DNA of 64,000 nt from an uncultured Pseudomonadota bacterium (GCA_963759165.1 CAVWXK010000001.1:3058164-3122163), one strand, 5' to 3'. Counted from the first letter of the stretch, positions 1-60,629 are shown. The notes: generated from the sequence alone by a model not told the origin. Translations and numbers: made by a program.

Positions 1-1115
1 TTGCTCAGCACGACCTCAAACGCCTCCTTGCCTACCACAGTGTCGAGAACATAGGCATCATTGCCCTCGGTTTAGGCGTGGGCATTATCGGATTGAGCGT
101 CGGCGTGCCTTCTATAGCGGCCGTCGGTTTCGCCGGCGCATTGCTTCATGTCCTGAATCACGCGCTTTTCAAGGGGCTGCTCTTTCTAGCTGCGGGGAAC
201 GTCGCACACGGCGCGCAAACCCGTGAAATAGATCACTTGGGAGGTCTCCTTCGGCGCATGCCCGGCACCGGCGCGACCTTTCTGATTGGCGCGGTGGCTA
301 TTTCGGGTCTTCCTCCGCTGAATGGCTTCATTAGCGAGTTCCTGATTTATCTGGCGAGCTTCAGAGGCGCCGTGGCGCTCGACGGTTCCAGCAACGTGCC
401 GATGCTGGCCACCATCTCGGGACTCGCTTTGATCGGAGGGTTGGCTGCCGCCTGCTTTACGAAGGCGTTTGGTATCGTTTTTCTGGGCGAACCGCGAACT
501 CAACACGCCGAACATGCACATGAGGTCGGCCTTGCGATGCTGCTGCCTGGATTTGTATTGGCGGCTGGATGCGTTTTGATTGGTCTGTTCGGCGCCGGCG
601 TTGTGCGGTCGATGGGTCCGTTGATCTCCAGCATAACCGGGCTCCCTCCAATTCCGGTGGGCCAAAGCCTTGCGGAAGCCGCTCACACGGTCGCGCTCGT
701 GAGCTATTCCGGCGCGGCGCTGCTTGGCGTGGCGGCGCTGCTCACTCTCGGCCGAGCAATGGCGCTTGCGCGGCGCCGGGTCCGCGCCGCGGCGACCTGG
801 GACTGCGGATACGCACGGCCGTCGCCGCGGATGCAGTACACCGCATCGTCGTTCGCGCAGCCACTCACCGAGACCTTCGCGATACTCCTGCAGACACGTC
901 GTGTTCTCTCGGCTCCGCGAGGACTGTTTCCTCAACAGGCGGAGTTCCTCACCCAAACCGACGATCCATACAAGACTTATATCTTTCAGCCGATGTTTCA
1001 TGCGATCGGCCGCTGGCTGTCTTCGCTACGACCGCTGCAGCAGGGGAAGGTACAGCTCTATGTGCTGTATATCGCCGTCACGCTTCTCGTGCTCCTGCTC
1101 TGGCAGGTCGTCTGA
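1..1115 (+). CDS. HyfB/NuoL-family antiporter-like membrane subunit of a hyf/hyc-like (group-4-hydrogenase/complex-I-related) complex; 5' end cut by window edge
   Basis: Frame open from nt 3 (AQHDLKRLLAYHSVENIGIIALGLG...) and continuous with ORF 78..1115. NuoL/M/N-type motif HALFKGLLFLAAG. Polytopic hydrophobic sequence. Only a 3-nt gap to the next subunit gene. Confidence 0.8.
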   Translation, partial: AQHDLKRLLAYHSVENIGIIALGLGVGIIGLSVGVPSIAAVGFAGALLHVLNHALFKGLLFLAAGNVAHGAQTREIDHLGGLLRRMPGTGATFLIGAVAISGLPPLNGFISEFLIYLASFRGAVALDGSSNVPMLATISGLALIGGLAAACFTKAFGIVFLGEPRTQHAEHAHEVGLAMLLPGFVLAAGCVLIGLFGAGVVRSMGPLISSITGLPPIPVGQSLAEAAHTVALVSYSGAALLGVAALLTLGRAMALARRRVRAAATWDCGYARPSPRMQYTASSFAQPLTETFAILLQTRRVLSAPRGLFPQQAEFLTQTDDPYKTYIFQPMFHAIGRWLSSLRPLQQGKVQLYVLYIAVTLLVLLLWQVV

Positions 1116-1118
1116 ATC

Positions 1119-2030
1119 ATGTTTTTGAGTTCGCTACTTCCACTGATGTTAGCGGCGGTGCTTGCTCCATTGATGCAAGCGGTTATTACCCGCACAAAGT
1201 CGGTGCTGGCGGGGCGCGCGGGCCAGCCGCTTGCGCAGCCTTACCTGGACCTGTGGAAGCTTGCGCGCAAGGGCGCCGTTTATAGTCACACAACGTCTTC
1301 GATCTTCAGGACGGGACCAGTGGTTGGGCTGGCCTCCCTCATCTGCGCCGTCGCGCTGATTCCCTTTGGGGGCTTTCCCGCGCTCACGGCGTTCTCAGGC
1401 GACTTTGTCATGATCGCATATCTTATGGCCCTGGGCCGCTTCTTCACGGTCATCGCGGCGCTCGATACCGGGTCGAGTTTCGAAGGAATGGGCGCAAGCC
1501 GCGAGGTGACGTTCTCAGCATTCGCGGAGCCGGCCTTTTTTCTTGCGCTGGCCGCGCTGGCCAAACAAACCGGGCATCTGTCACTCGGCCCCGTACTGGC
1601 GGCGATTTCCACCGGCACCTGGATGCGCGCCGCTCCGACGCTCGGTCTCGTGCTCGCGGCGCTCGTCATCGTTTTCCTTGCCGAGAACGCCCGGATTCCC
1701 GTGGACGATCCGACCACCCATCTGGAATTGACCATGATCCATGAAGTGATGGTGCTCGATCACAGCGGCCCCGACTTGGCGATGATTCAGTATGGCGCCG
1801 CGCTAAAGCTCTGGCTCTTTGGCACGATCATCGTTGGCGTCGCGGTACCATGGCACTCCGGCAATCGGTGGATCGACGCGGGCGCCGGTTTAATCGGCAT
1901 GCTGGTTCTGGGAATAACGACCGGCGCAATCGAGTCCTCGATGGCGCGCCTGCGGCTCCTTCGCGTTCCGCAACTCCTGCTCGCCGCCATCGTGTTGTCG
2001 GCGCTGGCCTCGGCACTCGCGCTGCATTGA
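1119..2030 (+). CDS. HyfC/HycD/NuoH-family membrane subunit
   Basis: 303 aa, multi-TM. Segment ENARIPVDDPTTHLELTMIHEVMVLDHSG resembles the conserved HycD/HyfC/NuoH loop. Operon position after the B-like subunit. Confidence 0.7.
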   Translation: MFLSSLLPLMLAAVLAPLMQAVITRTKSVLAGRAGQPLAQPYLDLWKLARKGAVYSHTTSSIFRTGPVVGLASLICAVALIPFGGFPALTAFSGDFVMIAYLMALGRFFTVIAALDTGSSFEGMGASREVTFSAFAEPAFFLALAALAKQTGHLSLGPVLAAISTGTWMRAAPTLGLVLAALVIVFLAENARIPVDDPTTHLELTMIHEVMVLDHSGPDLAMIQYGAALKLWLFGTIIVGVAVPWHSGNRWIDAGAGLIGMLVLGITTGAIESSMARLRLLRVPQLLLAAIVLSALASALALH

Positions 2031-2034
2031 AGTC

Positions 2035-2688
2035 ATGAGCCAGTTGGTCAATGCGATTCTCGTTCTCCTGGTACTCACCGGGTTTTGGCTCTTGAGCTCG
2101 AGCCGTCTGGCGGCCTGTATCCGTGCGGTCGCGATACAAGGAGTGCTGCTCGGGATTCTCGCCGTCGCCGTGCAGGGCGGACAGTTGTCCGTCACCGGCG
2201 TGCTTCTTCCCCTTACCAGCGCGGGGGTCAAGGGCTTCCTTCTGCCATGGTTGCTGTTTCGAGCGATGCGCGAAGCCGAGACCGCGCGCGAGGTCGAGCC
2301 ACTCATCAGCTATAACCTTTCGATCCTGTCAGGCGCCGTCGCTCTGGCTGTTTCGCTTTGGCTGGGGGAACGATTGAAGCTTCCGACTCAACCAGCTTCG
2401 TCCCTTCTCGTGCCCGCGGCGTTTTTCACCAGCCTGGTGGGCCTGCTCGTGATCGTCAGCCGGCGAAAAGCTCTGACTCAGGTGCTCGGGTACCTGGCGC
2501 TCGAAAATGGCGTTTACGCCTTCGGCGCCGCGGTCGCTCTTGAACTGCCGGTTCTCGTCGAACTCGGCATCCTGCTTGATGTCTTTGTAGGAGTGTTCGT
2601 AATGGGCATTGCGATATTTCACATTAGTCGCGAGTTCGATCATATCGACACGGACAAACTGGCCAGTCTCACCGACCAGCTTCGATGA
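2035..2688 (+). CDS. HyfE-like small membrane subunit (NuoK-related)
   Basis: 217 aa, all-hydrophobic, about 6 TM. Sits between the C-like and F-like subunits as in hyf operons. ATGA overlap with the next gene. Confidence 0.55.
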   Translation: MSQLVNAILVLLVLTGFWLLSSSRLAACIRAVAIQGVLLGILAVAVQGGQLSVTGVLLPLTSAGVKGFLLPWLLFRAMREAETAREVEPLISYNLSILSGAVALAVSLWLGERLKLPTQPASSLLVPAAFFTSLVGLLVIVSRRKALTQVLGYLALENGVYAFGAAVALELPVLVELGILLDVFVGVFVMGIAIFHISREFDHIDTDKLASLTDQLR

Positions 2689-4151
2689 TTACACTGCTCG
2701 TGCTGATTCCGGCCTGCGCCGGAGCCGTCGCGTTCTTTGTCGAATCGGATCGGCACCGCCGGGTTCTTCTGTTGTCAGCCGCAATGGCGCATACCGCGCT
2801 CAGCCTCGCAACTTGGGTCGTCCTGCCCACGGCCGCGTTGGGCGGCTGGCTCGCCGAAGACGCGTTGGGAAGGCTCTTTGAGACTCTAACCAGCCTTCTA
2901 TTCCTTGCCGCCGGCTTTTACGCCGTTGCCTATCTCCGCGAGGAACGAAGCCAGCCGCATGCCGATTTCGAAGAGGGCTTTCTTTTCTCCAACGCTCGCG
3001 AGGCGAGTTTCACTTGTTGTCTCCTTCTCTTCCTGGCCGCGATGACCCTGGTTACCGTCAGTCAGCATCTCGCGCTGCTTTGGGTGGCGATCGAGGCTAC
3101 AACTCTGGCCAGCGCCCCGCTGATTTACTTTCATCGGCATCATCGGTCGCTCGAAGCGACATGGAAGTATCTGCTGATCTGTTCCGTCGGGATCGCGCTT
3201 GCGCTGTTGGGTATCTTCTTCCTGGCGGTCGCCGCGACGAATCGGGATGGCTCTACTATTTCTCTCGTGGTCCAGGACCTTGGTTTGCACGCCCGTCACC
3301 TGAACGCCACGTGGTTTAAAGCGGCTTTTGTCCTGCTCCTCGTCGGCTATGGTACGAAGATGGGACTCGCGCCATTTCATACGTGGCTGCCCGACGCCCA
3401 CAGCGAAGCTCCCTCGGTCGCGTCCGCGCTCTTGTCGGGTGCGCTGCTTAACTGCGCGTTCCTGGGCATACTCCGGACTCAGGAGATCTGCGTTGCGGCG
3501 GGTTTGGCGGATTTCAGTGACAGACTGCTCCTGATTTTTGGTTTACTCTCGATGGCTGTCGCGGCCGTATTTATTGCCGGCCAGACTGACTATAAGCGCA
3601 TGCTCGCATACTCAAGTGTCGAGCACATGGGCATTCTCGCCGTCGGCGTAGGTCTTGGAGGCAGCGCGGTGTTTGGTGCGATGCTCCATGTGGTTAATCA
3701 TTCGCTGACCAAGGCGATGCTTTTTATGGTGGCCGGAAACCTGCTGGCCGTTTATCGCACCAAAAACATCGCCGATGTTGCCGGCGCTTTGAGCGTATTG
3801 CCGGCCTCAGGTCTTTTGTGGGTGCTGGGATTGTTCGCGATTACCGGCTCTCCGCCTTTCGGCCTGTTTCTCAGCGAGTTTACAATCCTGAAGGCCGCGT
3901 TGGACCAGGGTCAGGCGTTCGTGGCGGTTGTTTATCTTGGCCTGTTGGCCATCATTTTGGCGGCTATGGCCGCGCCGGCGCTCGCGATGGCGCAAGGAAT
4001 TCCGAGCAAGAACGTTACTACCCCAAGGAAAAGAAGTCTCGCGCTGACTGCCGTTCCGGCGATGCTCGGTGCGGCAGTCGTGGTGATGGGGGTTTATGTC
4101 CCCCCGGTTTTAACCCGCGCGCTCCGGGAAGCCGCGCGCCTCATTGGCTGA
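2685..4151 (+). CDS. HyfF/NuoM-N-family antiporter-like membrane subunit
   Basis: 488 aa. Motif GTKMGLAPFHTWLPDAHSEAPSVASALLSGALLN is typical of NuoM/N/HyfF proton-pumping subunits. Confidence 0.8.
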   Translation: MITLLVLIPACAGAVAFFVESDRHRRVLLLSAAMAHTALSLATWVVLPTAALGGWLAEDALGRLFETLTSLLFLAAGFYAVAYLREERSQPHADFEEGFLFSNAREASFTCCLLLFLAAMTLVTVSQHLALLWVAIEATTLASAPLIYFHRHHRSLEATWKYLLICSVGIALALLGIFFLAVAATNRDGSTISLVVQDLGLHARHLNATWFKAAFVLLLVGYGTKMGLAPFHTWLPDAHSEAPSVASALLSGALLNCAFLGILRTQEICVAAGLADFSDRLLLIFGLLSMAVAAVFIAGQTDYKRMLAYSSVEHMGILAVGVGLGGSAVFGAMLHVVNHSLTKAMLFMVAGNLLAVYRTKNIADVAGALSVLPASGLLWVLGLFAITGSPPFGLFLSEFTILKAALDQGQAFVAVVYLGLLAIILAAMAAPALAMAQGIPSKNVTTPRKRSLALTAVPAMLGAAVVVMGVYVPPVLTRALREAARLIG

Positions 4152-5664
4152 GCCCACCATGACCATCTCCGCTCCGTCTTTCCATAATGGCGAGCCCGTG
4201 TCGCTCGCGAGTATCCAGTGCTTGCCGATGCACGAGTTCAGAACCGGGATTATCTCAGCCGTGAACAAAGGCTCCAGCCTGACCGCCCTTTTTGGCACGC
4301 CGATGGAAAATGAGCACATCCAACTAATAGGCGTGCTCGCCGACCCGGTGACGAGCAGCCTCTCCTCGATCAGCACCGAGGCGGACGAGGCGTATCCGTG
4401 CTTGATGCTCGAGTGCCCGCAGGCGCATTGGTTCGAGCGCGAAATCGCGGAACAGTGGAGCGTACAGCCGCAAGGCCACTCGTGGCTCAAGCCAATCCGA
4501 TTCCACCTGCCCTATCGGTTGCCTCACGGCATCCGCGAAGCGCCGCTCCCTGGTGTAACCGACTTCTTCGCCATGCGCGGAGACGAAGTCCATGAGGTCG
4601 CCGTCGGTCCGGTACACGCGGGAATCATCGAACCTGGGCATTTCCGCTTCCAGTGTCACGGTGAGCAGGTTTTTCACCTGGAGATATCGCTCGGGTACCA
4701 GCATCGTGGCATCGAGCCCGCGCTTGTAGGCGGGCCCGGCAAACGCACGATCCATCTGGTCGAGACGCTGTCGGGAGATAGTTCAATCGGGCACGCAACC
4801 GCCTATTGTGAGGCGGTCGAGGGTCTAAGCGGCACCGTGGTTCCCGCCCGAGCACAAGTATTGCGCGGAATAGCGCTCGAACTCGAACGTCTCGCAAACC
4901 ATACCGGAGACCTTGGAGCGTTGGCGGGTGATGTCGGCTATCTGCCAACGGCGGCATATTGTGGCCGGATTCGCGGCGACTTCCTCAACATGACCGCGGC
5001 AATCTGTGGAAGCCGCTTCGGTCGTGGCATGATCAGACCAGGAGGGGTCCTATTCGATCTCGACACGCCGCTAGCGGCGGACCTTTCGCAGCGGCTCGAT
5101 AAGGCATTGAAGGACGTCGAGGATGCGGTCCGCCTTCTGTGGGATGCGCCATCCGTGCAGGCTCGTTTCGAGGACACCGGCGCGATCTCTCGCCAGACTT
5201 GCGAGGCGCTTGGGCTCGTCGGTCCCGCGGCTCGCGCCTGCGGTGTCGAGCGCGACATTCGGCAAGACTTTCCGAGCGGCGTCTTCAGGTTCGCTCAGAT
5301 CCCTATATCGAAATGGGACACAGGCGACGTTTTCGCACGTGCATGGGTGCGATGGCTCGAAATCCAACGTTCCGGCGCCTTTGTTCGGGAACAGCTCGCC
5401 GCCTTGCCTCAGGGGCCGATCCGTTCGGCAGTGGAACCGCTGGCGCCCGCCCATATGGTAGTTTCTTTAACCGAAGGCTGGCGTGGAGAAATCTGCCACG
5501 TAGCGATCACTGACGCCAAGGGACGGTTCGCTCGCTACAAGGTAGTCGATCCCTCGTTTCGCAACTGGATGGGCCTGGCGATTGCGATGCGCGACCAGCA
5601 GATATCCGACTTTCCGCTTTGCAACAAAAGCTTCAACCTCTCTTACTGTGGTCACGATCTCTGA
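4144..5664 (+). CDS. HycE/HyfG-like NuoC-NuoD fusion 'large subunit' lacking the [NiFe] cysteine ligands (Ehr-type)
   Basis: NuoC-like N-terminus (HWFEREIAEQW) plus NuoD/HycE-like core (GPVHAGIIEPGHFRF, LGYQHRGIE, ARAQVLRGIALELERLANH). Ligand motifs are degenerate: TLSGDSSIGH in place of RVCGICGFAH, and NLSYCGHDL-stop in place of DPCYSCTDR. Confidence 0.85.
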   Translation: MAEPTMTISAPSFHNGEPVSLASIQCLPMHEFRTGIISAVNKGSSLTALFGTPMENEHIQLIGVLADPVTSSLSSISTEADEAYPCLMLECPQAHWFEREIAEQWSVQPQGHSWLKPIRFHLPYRLPHGIREAPLPGVTDFFAMRGDEVHEVAVGPVHAGIIEPGHFRFQCHGEQVFHLEISLGYQHRGIEPALVGGPGKRTIHLVETLSGDSSIGHATAYCEAVEGLSGTVVPARAQVLRGIALELERLANHTGDLGALAGDVGYLPTAAYCGRIRGDFLNMTAAICGSRFGRGMIRPGGVLFDLDTPLAADLSQRLDKALKDVEDAVRLLWDAPSVQARFEDTGAISRQTCEALGLVGPAARACGVERDIRQDFPSGVFRFAQIPISKWDTGDVFARAWVRWLEIQRSGAFVREQLAALPQGPIRSAVEPLAPAHMVVSLTEGWRGEICHVAITDAKGRFARYKVVDPSFRNWMGLAIAMRDQQISDFPLCNKSFNLSYCGHDL

Positions 5665-5673
5665 GGACAAGCA

Positions 5674-6471
5674 GTGCCGGGTTTACTGATCACTCGATTA
5701 CGACAAGGCAAACGCACGCTACCATTCCCCAAGCCTGAGCCGCCTTTGCCGGAACGATTCCGCGGTCTTCCGGTACTCGATCAGTCGCGATGTGCATCAG
5801 GTTGCAGCGCCTGCGTTGATGTGTGTCCGACCGACGCGATTACCAATAGCGGAACGCTCCGGATCGACCTCGGGCGGTGCCTGTTTTGTCCCGAGTGCGC
5901 CAACGCCTGTCCCGAAGGAGCGATTCAATTCAGCCGGCAATACCGCCTCGCGACGACCGAGCGATCCGACCTGGTCCTGGAATCCGGACAAACCTTGAAG
6001 CTCGCGCGGCGTCTTGGCGACGACATTCATCGCATTCTCGGGCGATCACTCAAGCTCCGGCAGGTCAGCGCCGGCGGATGCAACGGATGCGAAGCTGATG
6101 TTAACGTTCTGAACACGGTGGTGTTTGATCTCGGGCGCTTCGGCATTCAGTTCGTGGCGTCACCGCGCCATGCGGACGGCCTCCTGATCACTGGTCCGGT
6201 TACGCGGAACATGCGCGCCGCACTCGAGAAGACGTACGAGGCCGTACCCGATCCGAAGATCGTGATCGCGGTCGGCGCATGCGCAATCAATGGTGGTCCG
6301 TTTCGGGATCATCCGGAAGTTCTCAATGGCGCGAACGATATCCTTCCGATTGATCTCTTCATCCCGGGGTGTCCCCCTCATCCGATCACCATTCTCGATG
6401 GACTGCTGCGGCTCCTGGGGGAAATCCAGGATCCCGAAAGAAGCTCCAAAGTCGCCAAGGTGTCAGGGTAA
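5674..6471 (+). CDS. Fusion of a 2x[4Fe-4S] ferredoxin (HycF/NuoI-like) with a NuoB/HycG-like small subunit
   Basis: N-terminus has CASGCSACVDVCP and CLFCPECANACP. C-terminus has GGCNGCE ... GACAINGGPF ... PGCPPHP, i.e. the four NuoB/HycG cluster cysteines are retained. Confidence 0.8.
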   Translation: MPGLLITRLRQGKRTLPFPKPEPPLPERFRGLPVLDQSRCASGCSACVDVCPTDAITNSGTLRIDLGRCLFCPECANACPEGAIQFSRQYRLATTERSDLVLESGQTLKLARRLGDDIHRILGRSLKLRQVSAGGCNGCEADVNVLNTVVFDLGRFGIQFVASPRHADGLLITGPVTRNMRAALEKTYEAVPDPKIVIAVGACAINGGPFRDHPEVLNGANDILPIDLFIPGCPPHPITILDGLLRLLGEIQDPERSSKVAKVSG

Positions 6472-6655: not shown

Positions 6656-7990
6656 TTAGTCTATGTGATAGCGCTTGCGCTTGCGCCAGAGGGTTGCGAT
6701 GCCGATGCCGAGGGTGTCCGCGGCCTCTTCAAGCGTAGCCGCTTGCGCCAGAACGCGCCTTATGTGCTCCTGTTCGACCTTTTCCAGGGTAGCGTCAGGC
6801 GGCAGTTCGCGCAGAGCCACCACCGTCGGCTGAAATATGAGATCGGGCAGGTCCTCCTTCAGTATCAGGTTGCCGCGGCTCAGGACGACGGCGCGCTCAA
6901 TCGCGTTGCGAAGTTCGCGGATGTTGCCGGGCCAGGCGTAGGTGGTCAAAGCGTTGGCCACCTCAGGGGATAGTTGCAGCCCAGGGCGACGATTGCGAAG
7001 GCGAGCTTCGGCCAGGAATCGATCAGCCAGTGCGATCACGTCCTCCGCGCGTTCGCGTAGCGCCGGGACGCGCAGGCTGATGACGTTGAGACGGTAAAAG
7101 AGATCGGAACGGAATCTGCCCGCCGATACCTCTTGCTGGAGGTCGCGGTTGGAAGCGGCAATGATGCGGGTATCAACCTGAATAGTGTGTTGGCCTCCGA
7201 CCCGCTCGAAGCGCTGTTCCTGCAGGAAGCGAAGGAACTTGGTCTGAAGGGACGGCGGAATGTCTGCGATCTCGTCGAGAAAGACCGTGCCTCCATCGGC
7301 GGCCTCAAGCCGTCCCGGCTTGTCCTTGACCGCTCCGGTGAATGCGCCGCGCACGTGCCCGAAGAGCTCGCTCTCGAGCAGATGTTCGGAGAGGGTGGTG
7401 CAGTTGACGACGACGAACGGGCGCTCGCGGCGCGAACTCCAATCGTGGATCTGGCGGGCGAGGACATTCTTCCCGGTGCCGCTTTCGCCAGTCAAGAGAA
7501 TCGTGGCGTCGCTCGCGGCGGCTTGGCGAGCGGTTTCAAGCAAGGCGGTCATCAGCGGGCTGCGCGATTCCAGCAGGGGAACGCCGTCGAGGGCGCTCCG
7601 CAGGATACGATTTTCCGAACGCAGTTCTTTCACTTCCAGCGCGCGTTCGACGATGTGCTGGATCTGGTCCAGGGAGAAAGGCTTGGTCAAGTAGTCATAG
7701 GCGCCGGCTTTCATCGCCGCAACGGCGTTGGCTACCGTCGCGTAAGCTGTCATCAGGATTACGATGGTATCCGGATAACGACGCTTGATTTCCATAAGCA
7801 ACTCGAGGCCGTTCATCTCGGCCATCCGATAGTCACTCAGCACGAGATCGAAATCGCCTTGCCGGGAAAGCGTGGCAAGGGCCTCTCTTCCGCTTTCAGC
7901 GGTCTTCACCTGGTGCCCGCACGAGTCGAGGAAGGTTGCGAGGCTCTGACGGATGTTCTTTTCGTCGTCGACTATAAGGAGCCTTGCCAT
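6656..7990 (-). CDS. Sigma54-dependent response regulator (NtrC family: REC + AAA+ + Fis-type HTH)
   Basis: Likely start MARLLIVDDEKNIRQSL (ATG at 7990, overlapping the kinase stop as TAATG). Walker A GESGTGKN, GAFTGA loop, C-terminal HTH TLEEAADTLGIGIATLWRKRKRY. Confidence 0.9.
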   Translation of the reverse strand: MARLLIVDDEKNIRQSLATFLDSCGHQVKTAESGREALATLSRQGDFDLVLSDYRMAEMNGLELLMEIKRRYPDTIVILMTAYATVANAVAAMKAGAYDYLTKPFSLDQIQHIVERALEVKELRSENRILRSALDGVPLLESRSPLMTALLETARQAAASDATILLTGESGTGKNVLARQIHDWSSRRERPFVVVNCTTLSEHLLESELFGHVRGAFTGAVKDKPGRLEAADGGTVFLDEIADIPPSLQTKFLRFLQEQRFERVGGQHTIQVDTRIIAASNRDLQQEVSAGRFRSDLFYRLNVISLRVPALRERAEDVIALADRFLAEARLRNRRPGLQLSPEVANALTTYAWPGNIRELRNAIERAVVLSRGNLILKEDLPDLIFQPTVVALRELPPDATLEKVEQEHIRRVLAQAATLEEAADTLGIGIATLWRKRKRYHID

Positions 7991-9777
7991 TAGGTGCGCT
8001 CCGCGATTGGTAGCTCTACGGTAAACTTGCTGCCCCGCTCGGAACTCTCGACGAAGATTCGCCCCCCGTGGGCTTCCACGATGTCCTTGACGATCGCCAG
8101 GCCTAGTCCGGCGGCGCCGGGCTCGTAGCCGTCGGCACTCCACTGCGAAAAGCGCGCGAAGATGTGGCCGCGAATCTCCGGTGCGATGCCGGGACCGGTA
8201 TCGGCAACTGTGAGCCTAAGCTGGCGCCCTTGCCGCTCGGCGAATACGTCGATCGAGCCTCCGCTCGGAGTATAGCGCAACGCGTTGCCGATCAGATTTG
8301 ATATCACCCAGGAAAGCTTGACCGGGTCGCCCCGTGCTTCAAGCCTTGGTTCATCAACATGGGTCGCGAGCCTCACCTGTTTCTGCTCAGCCTGGATGGC
8401 AAAGTTCCTGACCACCCCTACGACCAATTGGGCGAGGTCGAGCGGGGCGCTACTCACCCTGATGGAGGCCATCTCGCCGCGAGCAAGATTCAAAAGACCG
8501 TCGGCCAACTGGCGGATTCGTCCGGCCTCTTCGACGATGGCGGTGACCAGTTCCTGTTGTTTGGGATCGAGCGTGCTCCTGTTTCGCTGGAGCAGTTCCG
8601 CTGCCAGAGCGAGCGAGGTAAGCGGGGTCCTCAGCTCGTGGGAGAGGGTTGCGACCAGGTTTGCGCGGGCGCGGTCCTTGTCACGCAGGTAAGTGATGTC
8701 CTGCAGAATCAGTATGGTACCAAATGATTGCCCATCGCCCTGTCTGAGAGGGACTGGTTTTAGCAGATAGGTATGGTCACGCCCGCGCACGTGCAGGTCG
8801 ACTTCGATCTGCTGCCCGTTGCCGGGCGGCGTTGCGGCGCCGCGCAGGGCCGATCGCACACGAAGGTAATGAGGGTGATTACTGTTCAAATCGTCAAACG
8901 GGCTGCCAAGTGCGTCCTCTCTCTCGACCCCGAGGATGATTGAGGCAAGCTCGTTGATGTGTGCGACAATACCACTCGGATCGATCAATACGATCCCGTC
9001 TTCGAGGCTCTCGATGATCGCCTCGGTCTTGTTTTTCTCATAAATCAACCGGTCGACGTTGAGCTTGTCGAATTGCTCGAGCCGCTCGGCCATCTTGTTG
9101 AATTCCGAGGCTACCGCCTGAAGTTCGGCCAGCTTCTGCTCCCCCAGCCTTAACTGGGGCGTGCGAAGGCTGAAGCTTCGCAAGCGTTCCGCGAGTTCAG
9201 CGAGCGGCTTCGATATCGTCCAGGCGAGCGTCCAGGAAAGCGCCGCTCCAAACACCAGCAAAGCGGCAAGTCCGGCGGCGAACTCGTAGGTGAGCCTCGT
9301 TCCCATGCGGCTCGCGCGGCTGTCCGCGGCGAACATGGCGTCACGATTTATCTGGATGAGCTTGTCGAGGCGGGCATGCAGCACGGCGAATTCTTCGTCG
9401 TGACGCGCGGGCGCTCCGCCAGCTTCAATCTCGGCAAATAGGCGCCGCCCCCGTTCGTGAATCTCGCGCGCGAGTTCCGCCTCTCCGGCCTCGGTGATGT
9501 CGTGTTCCTCAACGTCGATCCAATGGAAAAATTCGTCACGGCTCGGGGAAAGGGCGGCGGAAAGCTTTCCGTCGCGCTCGCCGATCTGAAGGGCGCCGAG
9601 TGCGGCGTGCATATGCTGTGACGCTTCGATGCTTACGTAGTTACGGTACAGGGTTTCGCGAATCGCCCCGCTTAGACGGTAAACCTGCGGCAATGCCAGT
9701 ACGCCCAGCAGCATGGCGATCGCGAGCATTATAAGAGTGCCGTTGCGAATACGATTGCGGAGCGGCGGCGCGTTCAC
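7990..9777 (-). CDS. Membrane sensor histidine kinase (2 TM, periplasmic helical domain, HAMP, PAS, HisKA, HATPase_c)
   Basis: H-box LSHELRTPLTSL. N/G boxes NLIGNALRYT, DTGPGI, GLGLAIV. PAS segment IESLEDGIVLIDPSG. 4-nt overlap with the upstream USP gene. Confidence 0.9.
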   Translation of the reverse strand: MNAPPLRNRIRNGTLIMLAIAMLLGVLALPQVYRLSGAIRETLYRNYVSIEASQHMHAALGALQIGERDGKLSAALSPSRDEFFHWIDVEEHDITEAGEAELAREIHERGRRLFAEIEAGGAPARHDEEFAVLHARLDKLIQINRDAMFAADSRASRMGTRLTYEFAAGLAALLVFGAALSWTLAWTISKPLAELAERLRSFSLRTPQLRLGEQKLAELQAVASEFNKMAERLEQFDKLNVDRLIYEKNKTEAIIESLEDGIVLIDPSGIVAHINELASIILGVEREDALGSPFDDLNSNHPHYLRVRSALRGAATPPGNGQQIEVDLHVRGRDHTYLLKPVPLRQGDGQSFGTILILQDITYLRDKDRARANLVATLSHELRTPLTSLALAAELLQRNRSTLDPKQQELVTAIVEEAGRIRQLADGLLNLARGEMASIRVSSAPLDLAQLVVGVVRNFAIQAEQKQVRLATHVDEPRLEARGDPVKLSWVISNLIGNALRYTPSGGSIDVFAERQGRQLRLTVADTGPGIAPEIRGHIFARFSQWSADGYEPGAAGLGLAIVKDIVEAHGGRIFVESSERGSKFTVELPIAERT

Positions 9778-10247
9778 GGCTTCACTCCTTGGGCTTCATA
9801 GCCGACGAGCTCGATTTCAAAGTGACGCCCGCGGTTGATGAGCTGACGTGTGATGGAGCGCCGCAAGAGACGGCTTCCACCTCCGGGCCGGGTCCGGTGA
9901 AGGATGATCTTGCTAATCCGCTCGTCGCGGGCGAAGTCCGTCAAGGCCTGGGTTACATCCGGCGCTTTGAGCCAAACGACCTCGGCGCCCAAATCCGCGG
10001 CGAGGAAAAGGCTGTCGAGGAGGGCGTGAAACTTTTCGCTGGGGATGGCAGCGGTCGCCTCCCTGGGCGTTTCAACGTGGACCACAAAGAGTTCTCCTTC
10101 CTCTTCGCTCGTCGCGCGAACCACCTTGCGCAGCAGCGTCTCGGTGCCGGAGGCGTTTGCGGACAGGCAGAGCATGACACCTTTGCGCAGGCGGCGAGGT
10201 TGGGTTCGATTTCTGAACCGGAGGGCGCTGGTTGATCCGCTAGTCAT
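9774..10247 (-). CDS. Stand-alone KdpD-type universal stress protein (USP) domain protein
   Basis: 157 aa. VMLCLSANASGTETLLRKVVRAT...FVVHVETP...LAADLGAEVVWLKAPDV is clearly paralogous to the USP half of the preceding gene. ATG 10247 overlaps the upstream stop. Confidence 0.7.
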   Translation of the reverse strand: MTSGSTSALRFRNRTQPRRLRKGVMLCLSANASGTETLLRKVVRATSEEEGELFVVHVETPREATAAIPSEKFHALLDSLFLAADLGAEVVWLKAPDVTQALTDFARDERISKIILHRTRPGGGSRLLRRSITRQLINRGRHFEIELVGYEAQGVKP

Positions 10248-11395
10248 GATCCTGGCTGCCGAGGATTTCGACGTCGAAATCCTCGGCCTCGGAGATGAGG
10301 CGGTTGGTTATCGAGCGTCTCAGGATCAGGTTCCACAGACGCTTGTGTGTGCGGCCCACCACAATTCGGGTGATGTGCTTTTCGTGCGCGAAGTCGAGAA
10401 GCGGCTTCACGATGTCGGGGGACTTAAGCCAGACAACCTCGGCGCCCAGATCCGCCGCGAGGTTGATATTGTCGAGCAGGGCACGAAAATTACCGGTGCT
10501 GATCTTCTGGACCGACTCGGCTGGGGTCTCCACGTGCACCGCATACCAGTCGGCGTTTAGCTGGGCCGCGGTCCGCGAGGCCTTGCGCAAGAGCTGATCG
10601 CTGCCCTCCGGATTCGACGACAAACAGACCATGAGCCTCTCGGTTACGGCGGGCCTCCGTCCGCGCCCACGTTTGGCGAGCTCCAGGTCTTCGCGATGCC
10701 GGCTCTGGTCCCTGGCCACCTCGCGCAGAGCGAGCTCGCGCAGTGAGGCGAGATTGCTTGGCTTGAAGAAGTTCTTAAGCGCGTGCTCGACCTGCTCCGG
10801 GGGATAAATCTTTCCTTCACGCAGGCGTTCGCGAAGCTCCCCCACTGCGATGTCGACGGTCACCACCTGGTCGGCACGCGCCAGAAATCTATCCGGCAGC
10901 GTTTCTCTTACCTCGACCCCGGTTAACCGCTTGACCATCTGACTGAGGCTTTCCAGATGCTGGACGTTGAAAGCGGTGATGACGTTGATGCCGTTGGCAA
11001 CGAGTTCCTCGAACGTCCTGATAGCGCTTGGTGTGCCGGGAGCCCGGGGCGTTGGTGTGGGCTAACTCGTCGACCACGGCGATCTCGGGCTTACGCGCCA
11101 GCACGGCCTCAAGGTCCATCTCCTTGAGGACAACGCCGCGATAGGAGACTTCGCGCAAAGGGACGACTTCGAGGTCACCTAGCAAGGCTGCGGTATCGGC
11201 GCGCCCGTGAGTCTCGATTACGCCAATTACAACGTCATGTCCTTGAGCACGAAGCTGGTGCGCTTCCTGGAGCATGCGGTAGGTTTTCCCGACCCCCGCC
11301 GCTCCACCCACATAGATCTTGAGCCTGGCCTTCTGAGACCTCGGTACGAGGTCCAGAAAGGCTTCTGGCTCGCGGCGATCTTCCTCGTCACTCAT
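10240..11395 (-). CDS. kdpD: Soluble KdpD N-terminal sensor domain + USP domain protein (no kinase core); frame broken by one extra base near 11011
   Basis: P-loop GGAAGVGKTYRML and RHTKRYQDV. On the minus strand GAC GTT C GAG GAA: removing one base restores ...RYQDVEELVANGINVITAFNVQHLESLSQMV... and joins ORFs 10889..11395 and 10240..10938. A USP domain follows (RLMVCLSSNPEG...IVVGRT). Confidence 0.8.
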
Positions 11396-11589: not shown

Positions 11590-12174
11590 TCAGCGGGAGT
11601 TCGTGCCCAGGTCGTCGAGCGCCAGGTTGAGCATCACGACGTTTACTCCCGACTCGCCGACGACCCCGGCCCATCTGGGCCGCGTGTGCTCGCGTACCAG
11701 GCGTCGCACCGTGTCTTCGTTTAATCCTCGCGCCCTCGCGACGCGGGCAACCTGGAGCTCCGCCGCCGTCGGACTGATCTCGGGGTCGAGGCCGCTGCCG
11801 GAGGCAGTAACCAAATCCACCGGAACCCGTGACGCAGAGGTTCCAGGATTGTTCGCCAGAACGCCCTTGAGCTGCGCCCGCACGTTCTCGATGAGAGTCT
11901 TGTTGGTGGGGCCCAGGTTCGAGCCGCCGGAACTGGTCGCGTCGTAGCCTTTGTCCCCTGCGGCTGAGGGTCGCCCGTGGAAATAGCGCGGGCTGGTGAA
12001 GGTCTGACCAATCAGCGCCGAAGCGACGACCTTACCGTCGCGCGCTATCAGGCTGCCATTGGCTTGCCAGGGGAAGATAACCTGGGCGAGACCGAACACC
12101 AGCACCGGATAGATAATTCCAGTGAGGATCGTGAGTGCGCAGGTTAGTTTGAATGCGATCCGGAGATTGCGCAT
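11590..12174 (-). CDS. kdpC: K+-transporting ATPase subunit C
   Basis: 194 aa, N-terminal TM. Typical KdpC motifs GSLI, ASSGSNLGPTN-like (TSSGGSNLGPTN), SGSGLDPEISP. Confidence 0.95.
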   Translation of the reverse strand: MRNLRIAFKLTCALTILTGIIYPVLVFGLAQVIFPWQANGSLIARDGKVVASALIGQTFTSPRYFHGRPSAAGDKGYDATSSGGSNLGPTNKTLIENVRAQLKGVLANNPGTSASRVPVDLVTASGSGLDPEISPTAAELQVARVARARGLNEDTVRRLVREHTRPRWAGVVGESGVNVVMLNLALDDLGTNSR

Positions 12175-12183
12175 GGGCTTTTC

Positions 12184-14223
12184 CTAGATTAGGTGAAGTG
12201 CCGATATTACGAGGTCGATGGCTTTGATGCCGATGAAGGGGATTACCACTCCACCGACGCCGTAAATCAGGAGGTTGCGCGTAAGGATTGCCGACGCTCC
12301 CACGGGTCGGTATTGAACGCCTCGCAGAGCGAGCGGGATCAGGGCGATTATTATCAACGCGTTGAAGATCACCGCCGAGAGAATGGCGCTCTCGGGACTC
12401 GCGAGACGCATCACGTTGAGCGCCTGGAGCGCCGGGTAGCTAACGACGAACATCGCCGGGATTATCGCGAAGTACTTGGCAACGTCGTTTGCGATAGAAA
12501 AGGTGGTGAGCGCGCCGCGCGTCATCAGCAGCTGCTTGCCTATCTCAACCACCTCGAGAATCTTGGTCGGGTTGGAGTCAAGATCGATCATATTGCCGGC
12601 CTCGCGCGCGGCCTGGGTACCGGCGTTCATGGCGACCCCAACGTCGGCTTGAGCGAGCGCCGGGGCATCGTTGGTTCCGTCGCCGATCATCGCCACCAGC
12701 TTGCCCTGGGCCTGTTCTTCCCGAATCAGGCGCAGCTTCGTTTCGGGGGTAGCCTCGGCCAGAAAATCGTCGACCCCGGATTCACCTGCGATCGCCTGCG
12801 CGGTGAGCGGGTTGTCACCAGTGATCATGACGGTACGCATGCCCATCGCACGGAGCCTCGCGAACCGCTCTTTGATGCCCTCCTTGATAACGTCCTTGAG
12901 GTGGATGACCCCTAGAACGCGACCGCGATCCGCAACCGCGAGCGGCGTGCCGCCGCTACGCGCGATCCGCTCCACAATATCCTTAAGTTCGGTTGACAAC
13001 TCGCCGCCATGTTCGGTCACGAACTTCGCCACCTGGTCGTAAGCGCCCTTGCGGATAATGCGGCCGTTGAGGTCAACGCCGCTCATCCTGGTTTGCGCGG
13101 AGAAGGGAATGAAATGCGCTTCATGGTCGGCGAATTCCCGGCCGCGCAGATTGAACTGGCGTTTGGCCAGAACCGTGATGGAGCGGCCTTCAGGCGTCTC
13201 GTCGGCCAGCGAAGCCAACTGTGCGGCGTCGGCGAGTTGTTCCACTGGGACGCCTTTCACGGGAATGAACTCCGTCGCCATCCGGTTGCCGAGCGTGATC
13301 GTCCCGGTCTTGTCCAGTAAGAGGGTGTCCACGTCGCCCGCGGCTTCGACCGCGCGCCCGGACATGGCCAGCACGTTGTGCTGAACAAGCCGGTCCATTC
13401 CGGCGATGCCGATCGCGGAGAGCAGGCCCCCGATCGTGGTTGGGATGAGGCACACGAGCAGCGCGACCAACACCGGCAGTGAAAGCCTGGTGCCGCCGTA
13501 GAGCGCGAACGGGTAGAGCGTCACGACCACCAACAGGAAGACTATCGTAAGGCCCGAAAGCAGGATGCTGAGAGCGATCTCGTTGGGCGTCTTTTGGCGA
13601 TGAGCGCCCTCGACCAGCGCGATCATGCGATCGAGGAAGCTCTCACCGGGATTCGCCGTGATACGGACTTTGATCCAGTCGGAGATAACCGTGGTACCAC
13701 CGGTCACGGCGCTTCGGTCGCCGCCGCTTTCACGGATCACCGGAGCCGATTCGCCGGTTATCGCCGCTTCGTTGACCGCCGCCACACCTTCGATGACCTC
13801 GCCGTCGCCCGGAATGATGTCGCCCGCTTCGATCAGGACTACGTCGCCGCGACGCAACGACGGGGCTGGAACCATGATGGTTGCGCCGTCGCGGATAAGC
13901 TTGGCCTGGGTGTCGGTGCGGGTTTTCCTCAGTGCATCCGCCTGCGCCTTGCCCCGGCCCTCGGCCATCGCCTCCGCGAAGTTTGCGAACAGGACCGTGA
14001 ACCAGAGCCAGAGCGCGATCTGGGCCTCGAAAACCGCTAGCGCGGCATGGCCTTCAACCGCGTCGCGGAACAGGCTGATCGTGGTAAGAACGCTCGTCAC
14101 CTCGACCACGAACATCACCGGATTCTTGACCATCAGACGGGGGTCGAGCTTGCGCAGCGAGTCGATCGCCGCCCGGCCGACTATGTTCCTGTCCCAGATC
14201 GAACTTTGTTTTCGGGTCGCCAT
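12184..14223 (-). CDS. kdpB: K+-transporting P-type ATPase subunit B
   Basis: 679 aa. P-type signatures [36 protein letters not shown]. Confidence 0.97.
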
Positions 14224-14238
14224 TAGTCTCTTTCTCGA

Positions 14239-15966
14239 TCAGTAGGTTATGCCGGCAAGCATCTGGAGATGCTCGATCACGGGTCCGAGCGCGAGCGCCG
14301 GAAAAAACGTGAGGGCGCCGACTATCAGGATCACGCCGATGAGAAGTCCGACGAATATCGGACTGGTGGTCGGAAAAGTCCCCGCGCTCGGGGGAATCGA
14401 TTTCTTGGGCGCCAGCGAGCCTGCCAGCGCCAAAGCCGGGATCGCCATCATGAAGCGTCCGAACAGCATCCCAATGGCTAGTGTCCAATTGTAGAAGTTG
14501 GTATTGGCGTTGAGGCCGGCGAATGCGGACCCGTTGTTTCCGGCCGCTTGCGAGTATGCGTACATGATTTGCGAGAAACCGTGAGGTCCAGGATTCGATA
14601 TTCCGGCGAGGCCCGCGGAAAGAACGCACGCGGCGGCGGTCCCGAACAGGATTATCGCGGGAAAAATCAGTACATAGAGCATCGCCAGCTTCATTTCCCG
14701 GCTTTCGATCTTCTTTCCGAGGTACTCGGGCGTCCGGCCGACCATGAGGCCGGCGATAAAAACCGACAGTATCGCCATTACCAGCATCCCGTAGAGACCG
14801 GAACCGACGCCGCCGAAGATCACTTCTCCAAGCTGGATATTCACCAGCGGCACGAGACCGCCGAGCGGCGTGAAACTGTCGTGCATCGCGTTTACCGCAC
14901 CGCAGGAGGTGTCAGTAGTCACGGTTGCCCAGAGAGCCGAATCCACTATTCCGAAACGGACCTCCTTGCCCTCCATGTTGCCGCCGCTTTCGGTGGCCGA
15001 GGCGGAGGTATTGATTCCCAATGCCGCTATCTCCGGGTTTCCGCGTTGCTCGCTCCATATCGCGACGGCCGCGCCCATCACGAACAACAGGGTCATGGCC
15101 GCGAACAGCGTCCACCCCTGGCGCGTGTCTCCCGCCATCCTGCCGAAGGTATTGGTCAGGCCGGCGCCGATGGCGAAGATCGCGAGCATCTCAAGCAGGT
15201 TGGTAAGCGGAGTCGGATTCTCGTAAGGGTGGGCCGAGTTCGCGTTGAAGAAACCGCCACCATTGGTGCCGAGTTCCTTGATGATTTCCTGGGAGGCCAC
15301 TGGCCCTTGAGCGACGACCTGTTCCGCACCCTCGAGAGTCTTGGCGTGAGTGTAGGGGCTGAAGTTTTGTGGAACTCCCTGCCAAACCAGAACCAGCGCG
15401 AACACGATGCACAGCGGGAGCAGGATCCAAAGCGTGGCGCGCGTTAGATCAACCCAAAAGTTGCCAAGGGTTTTGGTGGAGCGACGCACGAAGCCGCGAA
15501 TGATGGCGATCGCCATCGCGATACCTGAGGCCGCTGAGACAAAGTTGTGATACGCCAGACCCGTCATCTGGGTCAGATAGCCCATCGTGGTTTCGCCGGC
15601 GTAGGCCTGCCAATTGGTGTTGGTACTGAAACTGGCGGCGGTGTTGAAAGCCAGGGCCGGAGATACACCAGGCAGACCCTGCGGATTAAGCGGAAGAACT
15701 CCTTGCAGCCGCTCGATGGCGTAGAGCGTCAGCATGCCGACCAGGCTGAATAGAAGCATGCTTACCGAGTACTCGACCCAGGTCATCTCGATTCCCGGCT
15801 GGATGCCGCAAGTCCGATAAATGAGTCGCTCAAAAGGTCTCAGGACGGGGTCGAGGAATGTGCGCCGGCCCGAGAAAACATTCGTCATATAGGCGCCCAA
15901 AGGCACCGTCACCGCGAGAACCAGGAAAAAAAAGACGGCAACCTGGATCAGAGCATTGGTCAGCAT
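14239..15966 (-). CDS. kdpA: K+-transporting ATPase subunit A
   Basis: 575 aa polytopic protein. KdpA-typical segments [19 protein letters not shown] and [21 protein letters not shown]. Confidence 0.97.
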
Positions 15967-18360: not shown

Positions 18361-19058
18361 GGCGGGATTCTCGATGACGGCGGTAGTAGATAGCGCCAGA
18401 GCAGCAGGCAAATCCCAACCGCGAGCAGCGCCTCCACCAATGCCCGGATTCGCGAACGGTCGGCGTCGGAAGCCGCCGCCTTCTCAGCCGTCGCGCCGCC
18501 TTCGGCTAAGTTTGCCTCCACCTCCTCGAAAGATATTCCGCTAAAGTATGCGGTGCCCGTGTTCAGAGCGCCGTAGCCGCCCAGACGGCACGCAAGCTCA
18601 ACGGAGGTTTCTCCGGGATCGGTCTTCACGCGAAATCCCACCCGCTGCCAATCATGTGTTCCGCGAATGTCGCCGGAGATGTAGGGCCGGTCCATTACTG
18701 TGATGTGAGCGCCGAGCCCACCTCCTACACCGACATTTTCGGTCCTGATCCATCCCGAGACCCAATATGATTTCGAGGGAGTCACGCGCACGGTCTGAAC
18801 CCATCGCGCGTCGTTCGGTTTGAGGCTCGATATGATGATCGTTCCGATCCCGGTCGCGCCTGCGATCCAGGTGAATCGCGTCGCCGACGGGTCGGAATCG
18901 AAAGCCACATGGCTCCAGCCCTCGGGCTGGCCGCCGATGCCGCGCGAAAACAGGCCGTTGCGAACCAGATCGGATGCCGCCGCCGGCGACGACCAGGCCA
19001 GCACGATTACAAAAACGAGGCTGAGAAGCCGGTCACAGGTTCGATAGCGAATGATCAT
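18357..19058 (-). CDS. Secreted/anchored CBM-like (CBM4/9-type beta-sandwich) protein with a C-terminal TM anchor
   Basis: Signal peptide ...SSPAAASD. NGLFSRGIGGQPEGW start typical of CBM_4_9-like modules. C-terminal helix LVEALLAVGICLLLW. About 85% identical to the N-terminus of the 710-aa protein. Confidence 0.6.
   Translation of the reverse strand: MIIRYRTCDRLLSLVFVIVLAWSSPAAASDLVRNGLFSRGIGGQPEGWSHVAFDSDPSATRFTWIAGATGIGTIIISSLKPNDARWVQTVRVTPSKSYWVSGWIRTENVGVGGGLGAHITVMDRPYISGDIRGTHDWQRVGFRVKTDPGETSVELACRLGGYGALNTGTAYFSGISFEEVEANLAEGGATAEKAAASDADRSRIRALVEALLAVGICLLLWRYLLPPSSRIPP
18545..18985 (-). repeat. Copy A of a duplicated CBM-module coding segment
   Basis: Colinear with 22445..22885 at a constant 3900-nt offset without indels. 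Roughly 85% nucleotide identity by eye. Confidence 0.85.
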
Positions 19059-20807: not shown

Positions 20808-20810
20808 GGC

Positions 20811-22943: not shown

Positions 22944-23192
22944 TCGAGTTTTTTTCTTATGACCTGGGTTTCATCCGGCGCCGGCTGACGGTTGGGTCGC
23001 ATAATACGAACGCCGGGTCAAAAGGACAACGATGTTTCAGCATAGCGCGCTTTTGCGAATGGGCGCATGCTCGTGATAGAAAGCGCTCCGGGCCTGCCCG
23101 TGATTGTTCGATGGTTTACCAATCCCCGCTCCCGGCGTGAAAATTTCCGGTCACGCACGAGGCCTCCGCTTTCCGACGAGAGTCCTGCCTTA

Positions 23193-60367: not shown

Positions 60368-60452
60368 GGCGCTTGCGATGCTACGTTCCAAGATGCGCAC
60401 GAGACACGGACGGCGCAACCGGAACACAAGCACCGTAGCGCAATTGGCGGAG

Positions 60453-60629
60453 CTAACGCGATTGGGTGCCGGCGGAACGCGACGACTCGCGCAAGCGCTC
60501 CAACACCGCATCCATCTCGCCGGCATCGGCCTCCAGCCGGGCCTGACGGCGTGCGATAAACATCACGTAGAGAAAAAGGCCGACAAAGATCAGGCTATAG
60601 GCAGCAACCAGGTAGCCGAGATTATCCAT
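60453..60629 (-). CDS. ccmD: Heme exporter protein D
   Basis: [33 protein letters not shown]: a single TM after ccmC. ATG 60629 is preferred over TTG 60659. Confidence 0.7.

Follow-up and report, generated by a model that had tools for sequence, protein, structure and literature searches.

The ehr operon and its large subunit

The window analysed here is a stretch of 64,000 nt from an uncultured Pseudomonadota bacterium (GCA_963759165.1 CAVWXK010000001.1:3058164-3122163), and it begins with a cluster of six genes, named ehr here, for a complex related to energy-converting hydrogenases and to complex I. The six open reading frames (ORFs), at 3-6471, were all intact and on the + strand with intergenic spacings of at most 10 nt, and NuoH-like and antiporter-like (NuoL/M/N) subunits were encoded together with a large subunit, EhrL, and a small subunit, EhrS (Table 1). 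Pfam and NCBIfam profiles agreed with the hyf/hyc order (B-, C-, E-, F-, G- and H/I-like) that a model reading the DNA without database searches (hereafter the sequence-only reading) had assigned to genes 1..6471. The EhrA fragment matched NCBIfam hydrogenase 4 subunit B (2.2e-87, profile positions 322-666 of 669) and Pfam Proton_antipo_M; in relatives the full-length protein has about 657 aa, and a full-length orthologue was found at 4107-6080 of the related locus L001. The C-terminal half of EhrC gave a weak match to Pfam Oxidored_q2 (NuoK-like). A terminator and promoter scan 3′ of EhrS gave nothing useful on the + strand. The exact EhrL sequence had no database record, and the upstream context was taken from relatives that were 76-86% identical.

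The sequence-only reading had placed the large subunit in an ORF at 4144-5664. This ORF exists, but its start at 4144 is probably wrong. The TTG at 4144 lies in frame farther upstream as an alternative, and the ATG at 4159, which gives a protein of 501 aa, is probably the true start because the closest homologues have 500-501 aa and begin with MTI, and because the HyfF-like gene ends at 4151. EhrL matched Pfam Complex1_49kDa (1.1e-38) and, weakly in its N-terminal part, Complex1_30kDa, and the best NCBIfam match was NuoD with 191.8 bits against an equivalog cutoff of 360 bits. When all PDB chains were searched with phmmer, the best sequence match was E. coli HycE (7z0s_E, E = 1e-40). The same chain was the best PDB fold match in Foldseek (TM-scores 0.89/0.85) for an AlphaFold2 model of EhrL (pLDDT 93, pTM 0.94), followed by NuoCD-type subunits of complex I.

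EhrL has neither of the motifs that carry the cysteine ligands in group 4 [NiFe]-hydrogenases, L1 (RxCGxCxxxH) and L2 (DPCxxCxx[HR]). In the phmmer alignments, 'etlSgdSsighatay' of EhrL stood opposite 'drvCgiCgfahstay' of HycE, with 'ermCgiCsfshnhty' of MbhL in the same register, and at the C-terminal end '...fnlSy' stood opposite '...sldpCy' of HycE. With E. coli HycE, HyfG and NuoCD from NC_000913 as partners, MAFFT placed RVCGICGFAH of HycE opposite T208 to H217 of EhrL and DPCYSCTDR opposite N498 to L506, which is followed by the stop codon. Thus, when aligned with HycE, MbhL and NuoCD, EhrL had no cysteine at any of the four ligand positions. The sequence-only reading had proposed that both N-terminal cysteines were replaced by serine and the C-terminal pair by serine and glycine; phmmer, MAFFT and a structure-based comparison concurred on all four, Ser210, Ser213, Ser500 and Gly503. 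The codons are TCG at 4771 (Ser210), AGT at 4780 (Ser213), TCT (Ser500) and GGT (Gly503). Cys502 lies one residue ahead of the second L2 position, in a column of C, S or A that is not conserved in the family.

HycE matures by HycI cleavage of a C-terminal peptide. EhrL ends exactly at the C-terminus of mature HycE and of NuoCD, and the absence of a processing tail noted in the sequence-only reading stands as an observation. However, the trait alone is not diagnostic because the nearest Cys-containing relatives, P0229 and P0245, also end there. Since these two proteins keep their cysteines and share the end point, the missing tail is a trait of the clade and not a consequence of metal loss.

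EhrS has a HyfH/NuoI-like domain for two [4Fe-4S] clusters (residues ~1-110) followed by a HyfI/HycG/NuoB-like domain for one (~125-250). It matched Pfam Oxidored_q6 (1.8e-30) and Fer4 families, the NCBIfam NuoB subfamily (123 bits against a cutoff of 116) and the HycF, HyfH and NuoI profiles. Cys136, Cys139, Cys203 and Cys233 aligned to the proximal-cluster cysteines of HycG/HyfI (CNGC ... GAC ... GCPP), so that the NuoB-like partner keeps its four cluster cysteines, as the sequence-only reading had claimed, and eight more are found in the HyfH-like domain, where two ferredoxin motifs, Cys40/44/47/51 and Cys69/72/75/79, aligned to HycF. Each of these 12 cysteines was kept in 46-51 of 51 homologues. 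In EhrS, a three-cluster wire, with two [4Fe-4S] clusters in the HyfH-like and one in the NuoB-like domain, looks intact. The first ferredoxin motif (residues 40-51) has the unusual spacing C-x3-C-x2-C-x3-C-P (C-ASG-C-SA-C-VDV-CP), whereas HycF, HyfH and NuoI have C-x2-C-x2-C-x3-C-P; all four EhrS cysteines are conserved in the family.

The proton-translocation module of the membrane arm also looks intact: its NuoH-like, HyfE-like and two antiporter-like subunits keep charged residues that serve proton translocation, with the hallmark residues found in the antiporter-like pair. We take those of E. coli NuoM to be E144, K234, K265 and E407 in the numbering of the complex I literature. EhrD E137 in transmembrane helix 5 (TM5), K225 (TM7) and E398 (TM12) aligned with NuoM E144, K234 and E407, and EhrD N256 corresponded to HyfF N263. 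The residues of EhrA are E140, K216, K247 and E399 in full-length numbering, where E399, the TM12 glutamate, is E112 of the fragment in the window.

Table 1. Coordinates of the ehr genes, the former ligand motifs and the upstream gene of related loci
Feature	Position	Strand	Remarks
EhrA, HyfB/NuoL-like antiporter-like subunit	3..1115	+	C-terminal 370 residues; gene cut by window start
EhrB, HyfC/HycD/NuoH-like membrane subunit	1119..2030	+	303 aa; Pfam NADHdh 7.5e-27, full length
EhrC, HyfE-like membrane subunit	2035..2688	+	217 aa; NCBIfam hydrogenase 4 membrane subunit (HyfE) 3.3e-25, full length
EhrD, HyfF/NuoM/N-like antiporter-like subunit	2685..4151	+	488 aa; NCBIfam hydrogenase 4 subunit F 1.5e-109
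EhrL, large subunit	4159..5664 (ORF 4144-5664)	+	NuoC-like + NuoD/HycE-like fusion without NiFe ligands
Former L1 motif	4765..4794	+	T-L-S210-G-D212-S213-S-I-G-H217, replacing R-x-C-G-x-C-x-x-x-H
Former L2 motif and C-terminus	5635..5661	+	N-L-S500-Y-C502-G503-H-D-L506, replacing D-P-C-x-x-C-x-x-R; stop 5662-5664
EhrS, small subunit	5674..6471	+	265 aa; fused HyfH/NuoI-like + HyfI/HycG/NuoB-like
HTH-EIIA gene, locus L001	3396-4103	+	
HTH-EIIA gene, locus L001	2480-3226	-	
HTH-EIIA gene, locus L003	4272-4979		
HTH-EIIA gene, locus L007	4235-4969		
HTH-EIIA gene, locus L052	3494-4186	-	

Conservation of the family, its pocket and its neighbours

A search with EhrL returned at least 8000 homologues. 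The best 120 were 68-91% identical, and the named ones were mostly metagenome-assembled genomes of Candidatus Binataceae/Binatus. When 50%-identity representatives were searched, 931 clusters were found at E <= 1e-30, and among the full-length sequences compared only two from this search had both CxxC motifs. Orthologues with 52-67% identity were present in at least 594 GTDB species-level genomes from at least eight phyla (Planctomycetota, Verrucomicrobiota, Acidobacteriota, Desulfobacterota, Myxococcota, Spirochaetota, Omnitrophota and Elusimicrobiota) and also in Binatia. Named hosts included Geothrix paludis (Acidobacteriota) and Geobacter argillaceus and Geomonas limicola (Desulfobacterota), and the orthologous operons of Geobacter, Geomonas and Geothrix were 55-57% identical.

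The residues that took the place of the ligands are themselves conserved. In 218 full-length sequences the family motifs were [S/A/C]-G-D-[T/S]-x and K-S-F-N-L-S-Y-[C/S/A]-G-[H/N/F]-D-L. Gly211 and Asp212 were conserved in 94% and 90% of the 50%-identity representatives, and Ser500, Gly503 and Asp505 in 94%, 98% and 98% of the family. Residues 489-506 were the most conserved stretch of the protein, with at least 85% conservation at 10 of these last 18 positions compared to 71 of 506 overall. Among 73 orthologues drawn from species-representative genomes, every one had at most one cysteine at the four ligand positions, which read A/T/S/G in 57 and S/S/S/G in five; position 210 was A, S, C or G and position 213 was T or S, and all 73 proteins ended at the same residue. 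When compared to two Binataceae relatives by the Nei-Gojobori method, all five complete ehr genes showed a ratio of nonsynonymous to synonymous substitution rates (dN/dS) of 0.06-0.20, with 0.06-0.13 for EhrL and 0.12-0.20 for EhrB. The whole ehr operon is under purifying selection, and with these values and a Cys-less state shared by all 73 orthologues, EhrL is neither a pseudogene nor a sequencing error.

Public databases name the Cys-less homologues 'Ni,Fe-hydrogenase III large subunit', 'hydrogenase', 'carbon monoxide-induced hydrogenase' or 'NADH-quinone oxidoreductase subunit C'. With such names, metagenomic or automated metabolic reconstructions may miscount Ehr as H2 metabolism or as complex I.

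For the former Ni-Fe pocket, NuoCD and four hydrogenases that have the cysteines were compared with 81 Cys-less sequences, most of them representatives of 50%-identity clusters and the others the query itself and a small number of orthologues that were close or cultured. In [NiFe]-hydrogenases the glutamate of the EPxxFR loop is the proton-relay glutamate and the arginine of the (P)RG motif is the 'canopy' arginine. The EhrL family retains both, in the hydrogenase-type loop I-E163-P-G-H-F-R-F and in Arg447 of the (P)RG motif. Five well-conserved positions, Gly184, Asp212, Asp469, Ser500 and Gly503, differed from all four hydrogenases, and at the first of these EhrL and NuoCD share glycine where hydrogenases have phenylalanine. 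Asp212, Asp469, Glu163 and Arg447 were invariant in 73 of 73 orthologues; motif homology places Asp212, Glu163 and Arg447 in the pocket, and the position of Asp469 lies outside such homology. The residues that bind quinone in complex I are replaced as well, with Gly211 at the NuoCD tyrosine (Nqo4 Tyr87 of T. thermophilus) and Ile162 at the histidine (Nqo4 His38). With both ligand and quinone residues replaced, the EhrL site is not a Ni-Fe site, and it is not a canonical quinone site of the complex I type either, but it is under strong constraint.

Genes for maturation or electron input do not accompany the operon. With E. coli HypA-F, HycI, HycH, HycB, HyfA, HyfJ, NuoE/F/G and FdhF as tblastn queries, only the ferredoxin motif of EhrS was hit in the 64-kb window, and nothing was found within 10 kb on either side of 84 related loci, namely the contigs of close relatives and 80 loci from GTDB species representatives. 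Pfam scans of ORFs of at least 157 aa between 6.6 and 60.5 kb showed no accessory genes but only two-component regulators, kdpABC and housekeeping genes. Both searches bear out the statement in the sequence-only reading that the window lacks hyp, hycI and formate dehydrogenase genes. All-vs-all clustering of ORFs revealed no conserved dehydrogenase or electron-input module beside the operon in the 84 loci. The sequence-only reading had pointed upstream of the window for such a module; in the relatives, a regulator-like gene was found there instead.

This gene, which encodes about 235 aa and immediately precedes the HyfB-like gene, was the sole conserved neighbour beyond the six core genes. Its product has an excisionase/MerR-type helix-turn-helix (HTH_17, TIGR01764) fused with a PTS_EIIA_2 domain closest to PtsN/FruA, and it retains a GxGiAiPH motif with an invariant, phospho-acceptor histidine. 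A hidden Markov model detected this HTH-EIIA gene in 47 loci from several phyla, by rough estimate three quarters of the loci whose upstream sequence is long enough, and Binataceae have a second, divergent copy. The HTH-EIIA gene probably encodes a regulator of the ehr operon in the relatives. A narrow literature search found no mention of its association with ehr. The additional ORF clusters 6-9 and 11 were rejected as conserved partners, being antisense shadow ORFs of core genes. A conserved functional link between ehr and kdp was likewise rejected, as relatives L001-L003 have tat or other genes downstream.

Relation to known complexes and a proposed working of Ehr

The Ehr class is said to have been defined by Coppi in 2005, and Marreiros et al. 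reportedly generalised it in 2013 as energy-converting hydrogenase-related complexes. Like the window operon, the Ehr cluster of Geobacter sulfurreducens encodes NuoL-like and HyfE-like subunits together with a small Fe-S subunit and a large subunit that lacks the NiFe cysteines; presumably it also encodes a NuoH-like and a second antiporter-like subunit. It differs in that the host of the window is Binataceae-like and in the ligand positions, which are S/S/S/G in the window compared to the commonest A/T/S/G. The Geobacteraceae orthologues have the gene order of the window operon; G. argillaceus and Geomonas limicola have orthologous operons, and homologues of the large subunit are present in G. 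pickeringii and G. grbiciae. The name Ehr (Ech-hydrogenase-related) was coined for GSU0739-45 of G. sulfurreducens, where EhrA (NuoL-like), EhrC (HyfE-like), EhrL and EhrS were named (PMC7894505), and six orthologous Geobacter ehr genes have been listed (PMC4667449). All G. sulfurreducens Ehr subunits were detected by proteomics, and they were more abundant on formate than in hydrogen-containing conditions (PMC7894505). Ehr has further been described in Margulisbacteria, Saganbacteria and Melainabacteria (PMC6349859), in Mycobacterium tuberculosis as Rv0081-87 (PMC6728331), in comammox Nitrospira (PMC10284858) and in ammonia-oxidising archaea (PMC10432482).

The best-matching characterised systems are the E. 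coli hydrogenases. Hyd-4 (HyfB, C, E, F, G, H, I) has the gene order of the window operon, B-C-E-F-G-H-I, and its profiles gave the best matches, and Hyd-3, the formate hydrogenlyase (HycC-G; PDB 7Z0S), contains HycE, the best sequence and fold match of EhrL. Since no PDB entry was closer than HycE, it appears that no Ehr structure exists. HycE-type large subunits and EhrL have in common the NuoC-like N-terminal fusion, the EPGHFR loop, Glu163 and Arg447. In contrast, EhrL is only 25-27% identical to its Hyf/Hyc counterparts and lacks the CxxC motifs and the C-terminal processing peptide, and the ehr locus lacks HyfA/HycB, HyfD, HyfJ/HycH, HycI, Hyp and FdhF and has HyfH and HyfI fused. P0229 and P0245, Hyf-like group 4 hydrogenases and the closest Cys-containing proteins, are 37-40% identical to EhrL. 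They resemble it in their HyfE-like and HyfF-like neighbours, tail-less end and IEPGHFRF loop, but they keep both CxxC motifs, match Pfam NiFeSe_Hases and have separate ferredoxin and NuoB-like genes; the P0229 cluster runs HyfE-like gene, HyfF-like gene, large subunit, separate ferredoxin gene and NuoB gene.

Complex I NuoCD/Nqo4 resembles EhrL in the absence of NiFe cysteines, in the C-terminal end and in the fold (TM-scores 0.65-0.85). It differs in the quinone tyrosine and histidine, which EhrL does not have, and EhrL has a hydrogenase-like beta1-beta2 loop (IEPGHFRF) beside a Hyf-type membrane arm. Unlike complex I, the ehr locus has no NuoEFG by tblastn and no NuoA or NuoJ, and only the HyfE-like protein with its weakly NuoK-like half. 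The Mbx/MBS complex of Pyrococcus furiosus (PDB 6U8Y) is a group 4 relative that has lost hydrogenase chemistry while keeping Fe-S clusters and ion translocation, and it has been cited as an Ehr-type analogue (PMC6349859). It is more distant from EhrL (MbsL, E = 4e-16, compared to 1e-40 for HycE), its arm is Mrp-type with many more subunits, and nothing at the ehr locus points to sulfur chemistry. With NuoCD as the root of a neighbour-joining tree, all 81 Cys-less sequences fell into one clade with P0245 as its sister and HycE/HyfG outside, a position that is suggestive only. In the literature, Ehr stands next to group 4f in a published tree (PMC10284858), and Ehr proteins have been called homologues of group 4a (PMC10432482).

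The assignment of the window operon to Ehr is supported by a six-gene composition identical to that of the G. sulfurreducens Ehr cluster, by the absent ligands and by the retained Fe-S small subunit. Judged by its sequence, the operon reads firmly as a Binataceae-like addition to an already known, widespread class, and its products firmly as not a hydrogenase. With a probability of roughly 0.8, we consider EhrL to be the large subunit of a six-subunit, nickel-free Ehr complex that descended from a Hyf-type group 4 [NiFe]-hydrogenase and carries out redox-driven ion translocation. Every test that was run agreed with the sequence-only reading of an Ehr-class, complex-I-like module without canonical NiFe binding. 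The complex would work as a redox-driven ion-translocating oxidoreductase or in the reverse direction. Its electron donor would be a soluble carrier of low potential, most likely ferredoxin, since the operon does not include a dehydrogenase module. The electrons would be taken up at the HyfH-like domain and passed to the proximal cluster and then to an acceptor in the former Ni-Fe pocket, remodelled and situated where EhrL, EhrS and EhrB meet. There, Glu163 and Arg447 would be retained from the hydrogenase and Asp212 and Asp469 gained. The energy of the reaction would be transmitted to the membrane arm. The most plausible acceptor is a membrane quinone, although EhrL lacks the quinone ligands that are canonical in complex I, and in the relatives the PtsN-like HTH-EIIA protein encoded directly upstream probably controls expression.

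Several points weigh against this interpretation. The link to the G. sulfurreducens Ehr runs through other Geobacteraceae orthologues and the identical composition and not through the GSU sequences themselves, and no database name among the homologues, searched with the G. argillaceus orthologue, says 'Ehr'; the names there were 'hydrogenase large subunit' or 'NADH-quinone oxidoreductase subunit C'. The monophyly of the Cys-less clade had a weak bootstrap of 10/30. A complex-I-style quinone site in EhrL is not supported, because of the Tyr to Gly211 and His to Ile162 replacements. The one argument for ferredoxin as the donor is that the operon has no input module, and the donor, the acceptor and the ion of the proposed mechanism are all inferred.

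The most serious alternative, unlikely but credible, is that the complex is a ferredoxin:quinone (menaquinone) oxidoreductase like complex I/NDH-1 without NuoEFG, with the quinone bound between EhrL, EhrS and EhrB. Its NuoB-, NuoD-, NuoC-, NuoI- and NuoH-like core with antiporter-like subunits corresponds to the 'universal adaptor' of complex I, no input module is encoded near the operon, and both the NuoD-like end of EhrL and Gly184 fit such an enzyme. However, glycine and isoleucine take the places of the quinone head-group residues, the beta1-beta2 loop is of the hydrogenase type and not NuoD-like, and no quinone-related gene is linked.

A bolder extension of the nickel-free Ehr reading, which we regard as doubtful, is that the former Ni-Fe pocket has been rebuilt into a strictly conserved site for a different cofactor, metal ion or substrate and that the PtsN-like HTH-EIIA regulator is dedicated to the complex. 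Such a site could comprise Asp212, Asp469, the retained Glu163 and Arg447, the Ser/Thr residues at the former ligand positions and the conserved C-terminus. If true, the pocket would give the complex I/hydrogenase superfamily a catalytic or coupling centre of a third type, not described before, and the regulator, found with the complex across at least eight phyla, would switch the complex on.

It is improbable that Ehr is a Mrp-like cation/proton transporter without substrate-level redox chemistry, in which the Fe-S domain would be only a redox sensor or gate, perhaps for K+ or ion homeostasis. PtsN regulates K+ transport in E. coli, and the EIIA domain of the linked regulator is PtsN-like; in addition, no acceptor-binding residues are recognisable, the carboxylate- and hydroxyl-rich pocket (Asp212, Asp469, Glu163, Ser/Thr) would suit a cation or water, and the window operon adjoins kdp genes. 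Yet this adjacency is not conserved, a three-cluster wire with 12 conserved cysteines would be costly for a mere sensor, and all characterised relatives are oxidoreductases.

Even less probable is a decaying, non-functional hydrogenase relic under relaxed selection. All catalytic ligands are lost, the split genes elsewhere in the window could reflect assembly errors or some genome decay, and one paper treats Ehr as non-functional, an assertion made for Geobacter KN400 (PMC13194489). The low dN/dS of all five complete genes and the conserved substitutions of the family contradict this view, as 73 orthologues from at least eight phyla share the substitutions, the 12 Fe-S cysteines and the pocket residues, the six ORFs are intact and tightly spaced, and the Geobacter subunits are all made (PMC7894505). 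Finally, a real [NiFe]-hydrogenase with cysteines hidden by sequencing error or misalignment, or with non-canonical ligands such as Cys502, is almost certainly the wrong explanation: although Cys502 adjoins the second L2 position, the three serine codons are each one substitution from a cysteine codon and the assembly may hold indel errors, three independent alignment methods concur, the Cys-less state recurs in hundreds of independent assemblies, the Cys502 column is unconserved, and hyp and hycI are absent from the window and the 84 related loci.

In the complex I/energy-converting hydrogenase superfamily, few members without an assigned reaction are as widespread as Ehr complexes, and with the window an uncultured lineage contributes one more. 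Useful leads are the pocket signature seen across the family and the linked HTH-EIIA gene, and the invariant Asp/Asp/Glu/Arg pocket, the three-cluster wire, the purifying selection across the operon and the HTH-EIIA gene, linked where an input module is not, offer targets for mutagenesis and structure determination in a tractable host such as Geobacter.

Other genes of the window

Elsewhere in the window there are indel errors or real frameshifts, because the genes for a KdpD sensor domain, DnaJ and a PAS kinase are split; the ehr genes are intact. The N-terminal sensor domain of KdpD is split at 10240-11395 (-), where the ORF at 10889-11395 covers profile positions 2-109 and the ORF at 10240-10938 covers 133-208; a frameshift or an indel in the assembly accounts for the split. 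The domain is flanked by kdpCBA (11590-15966) on one side and by the genes for a PAS histidine kinase (7990-9777) and a sigma-54 response regulator (6656-8143) on the other. DnaJ is split at 59274-60526 (-) into a J-domain ORF (59873-60526) and an ORF with the CXXCXGXG and C-terminal parts (59274-59903) that overlap by 31 nt, an apparent frameshift. A very PAS-rich sensor kinase appears to be spread over three consecutive ORFs at 28743-33353 (+), of 1000 aa (at least six PAS domains), 317 aa (two PAS domains) and 211 aa (HisKA and HATPase), which may be one gene with frameshifts, and another PAS kinase is found at 26281-28317. Three consecutive ORFs without a Pfam match (233, 582 and 710 aa) at 18357-22943 (-) adjoin a PMT_2-type glycosyltransferase gene (16798-18411), and facing them at 23067-25937 (+) is the gene for a protein of 956 aa that carries a PA14 domain at its C-terminus.

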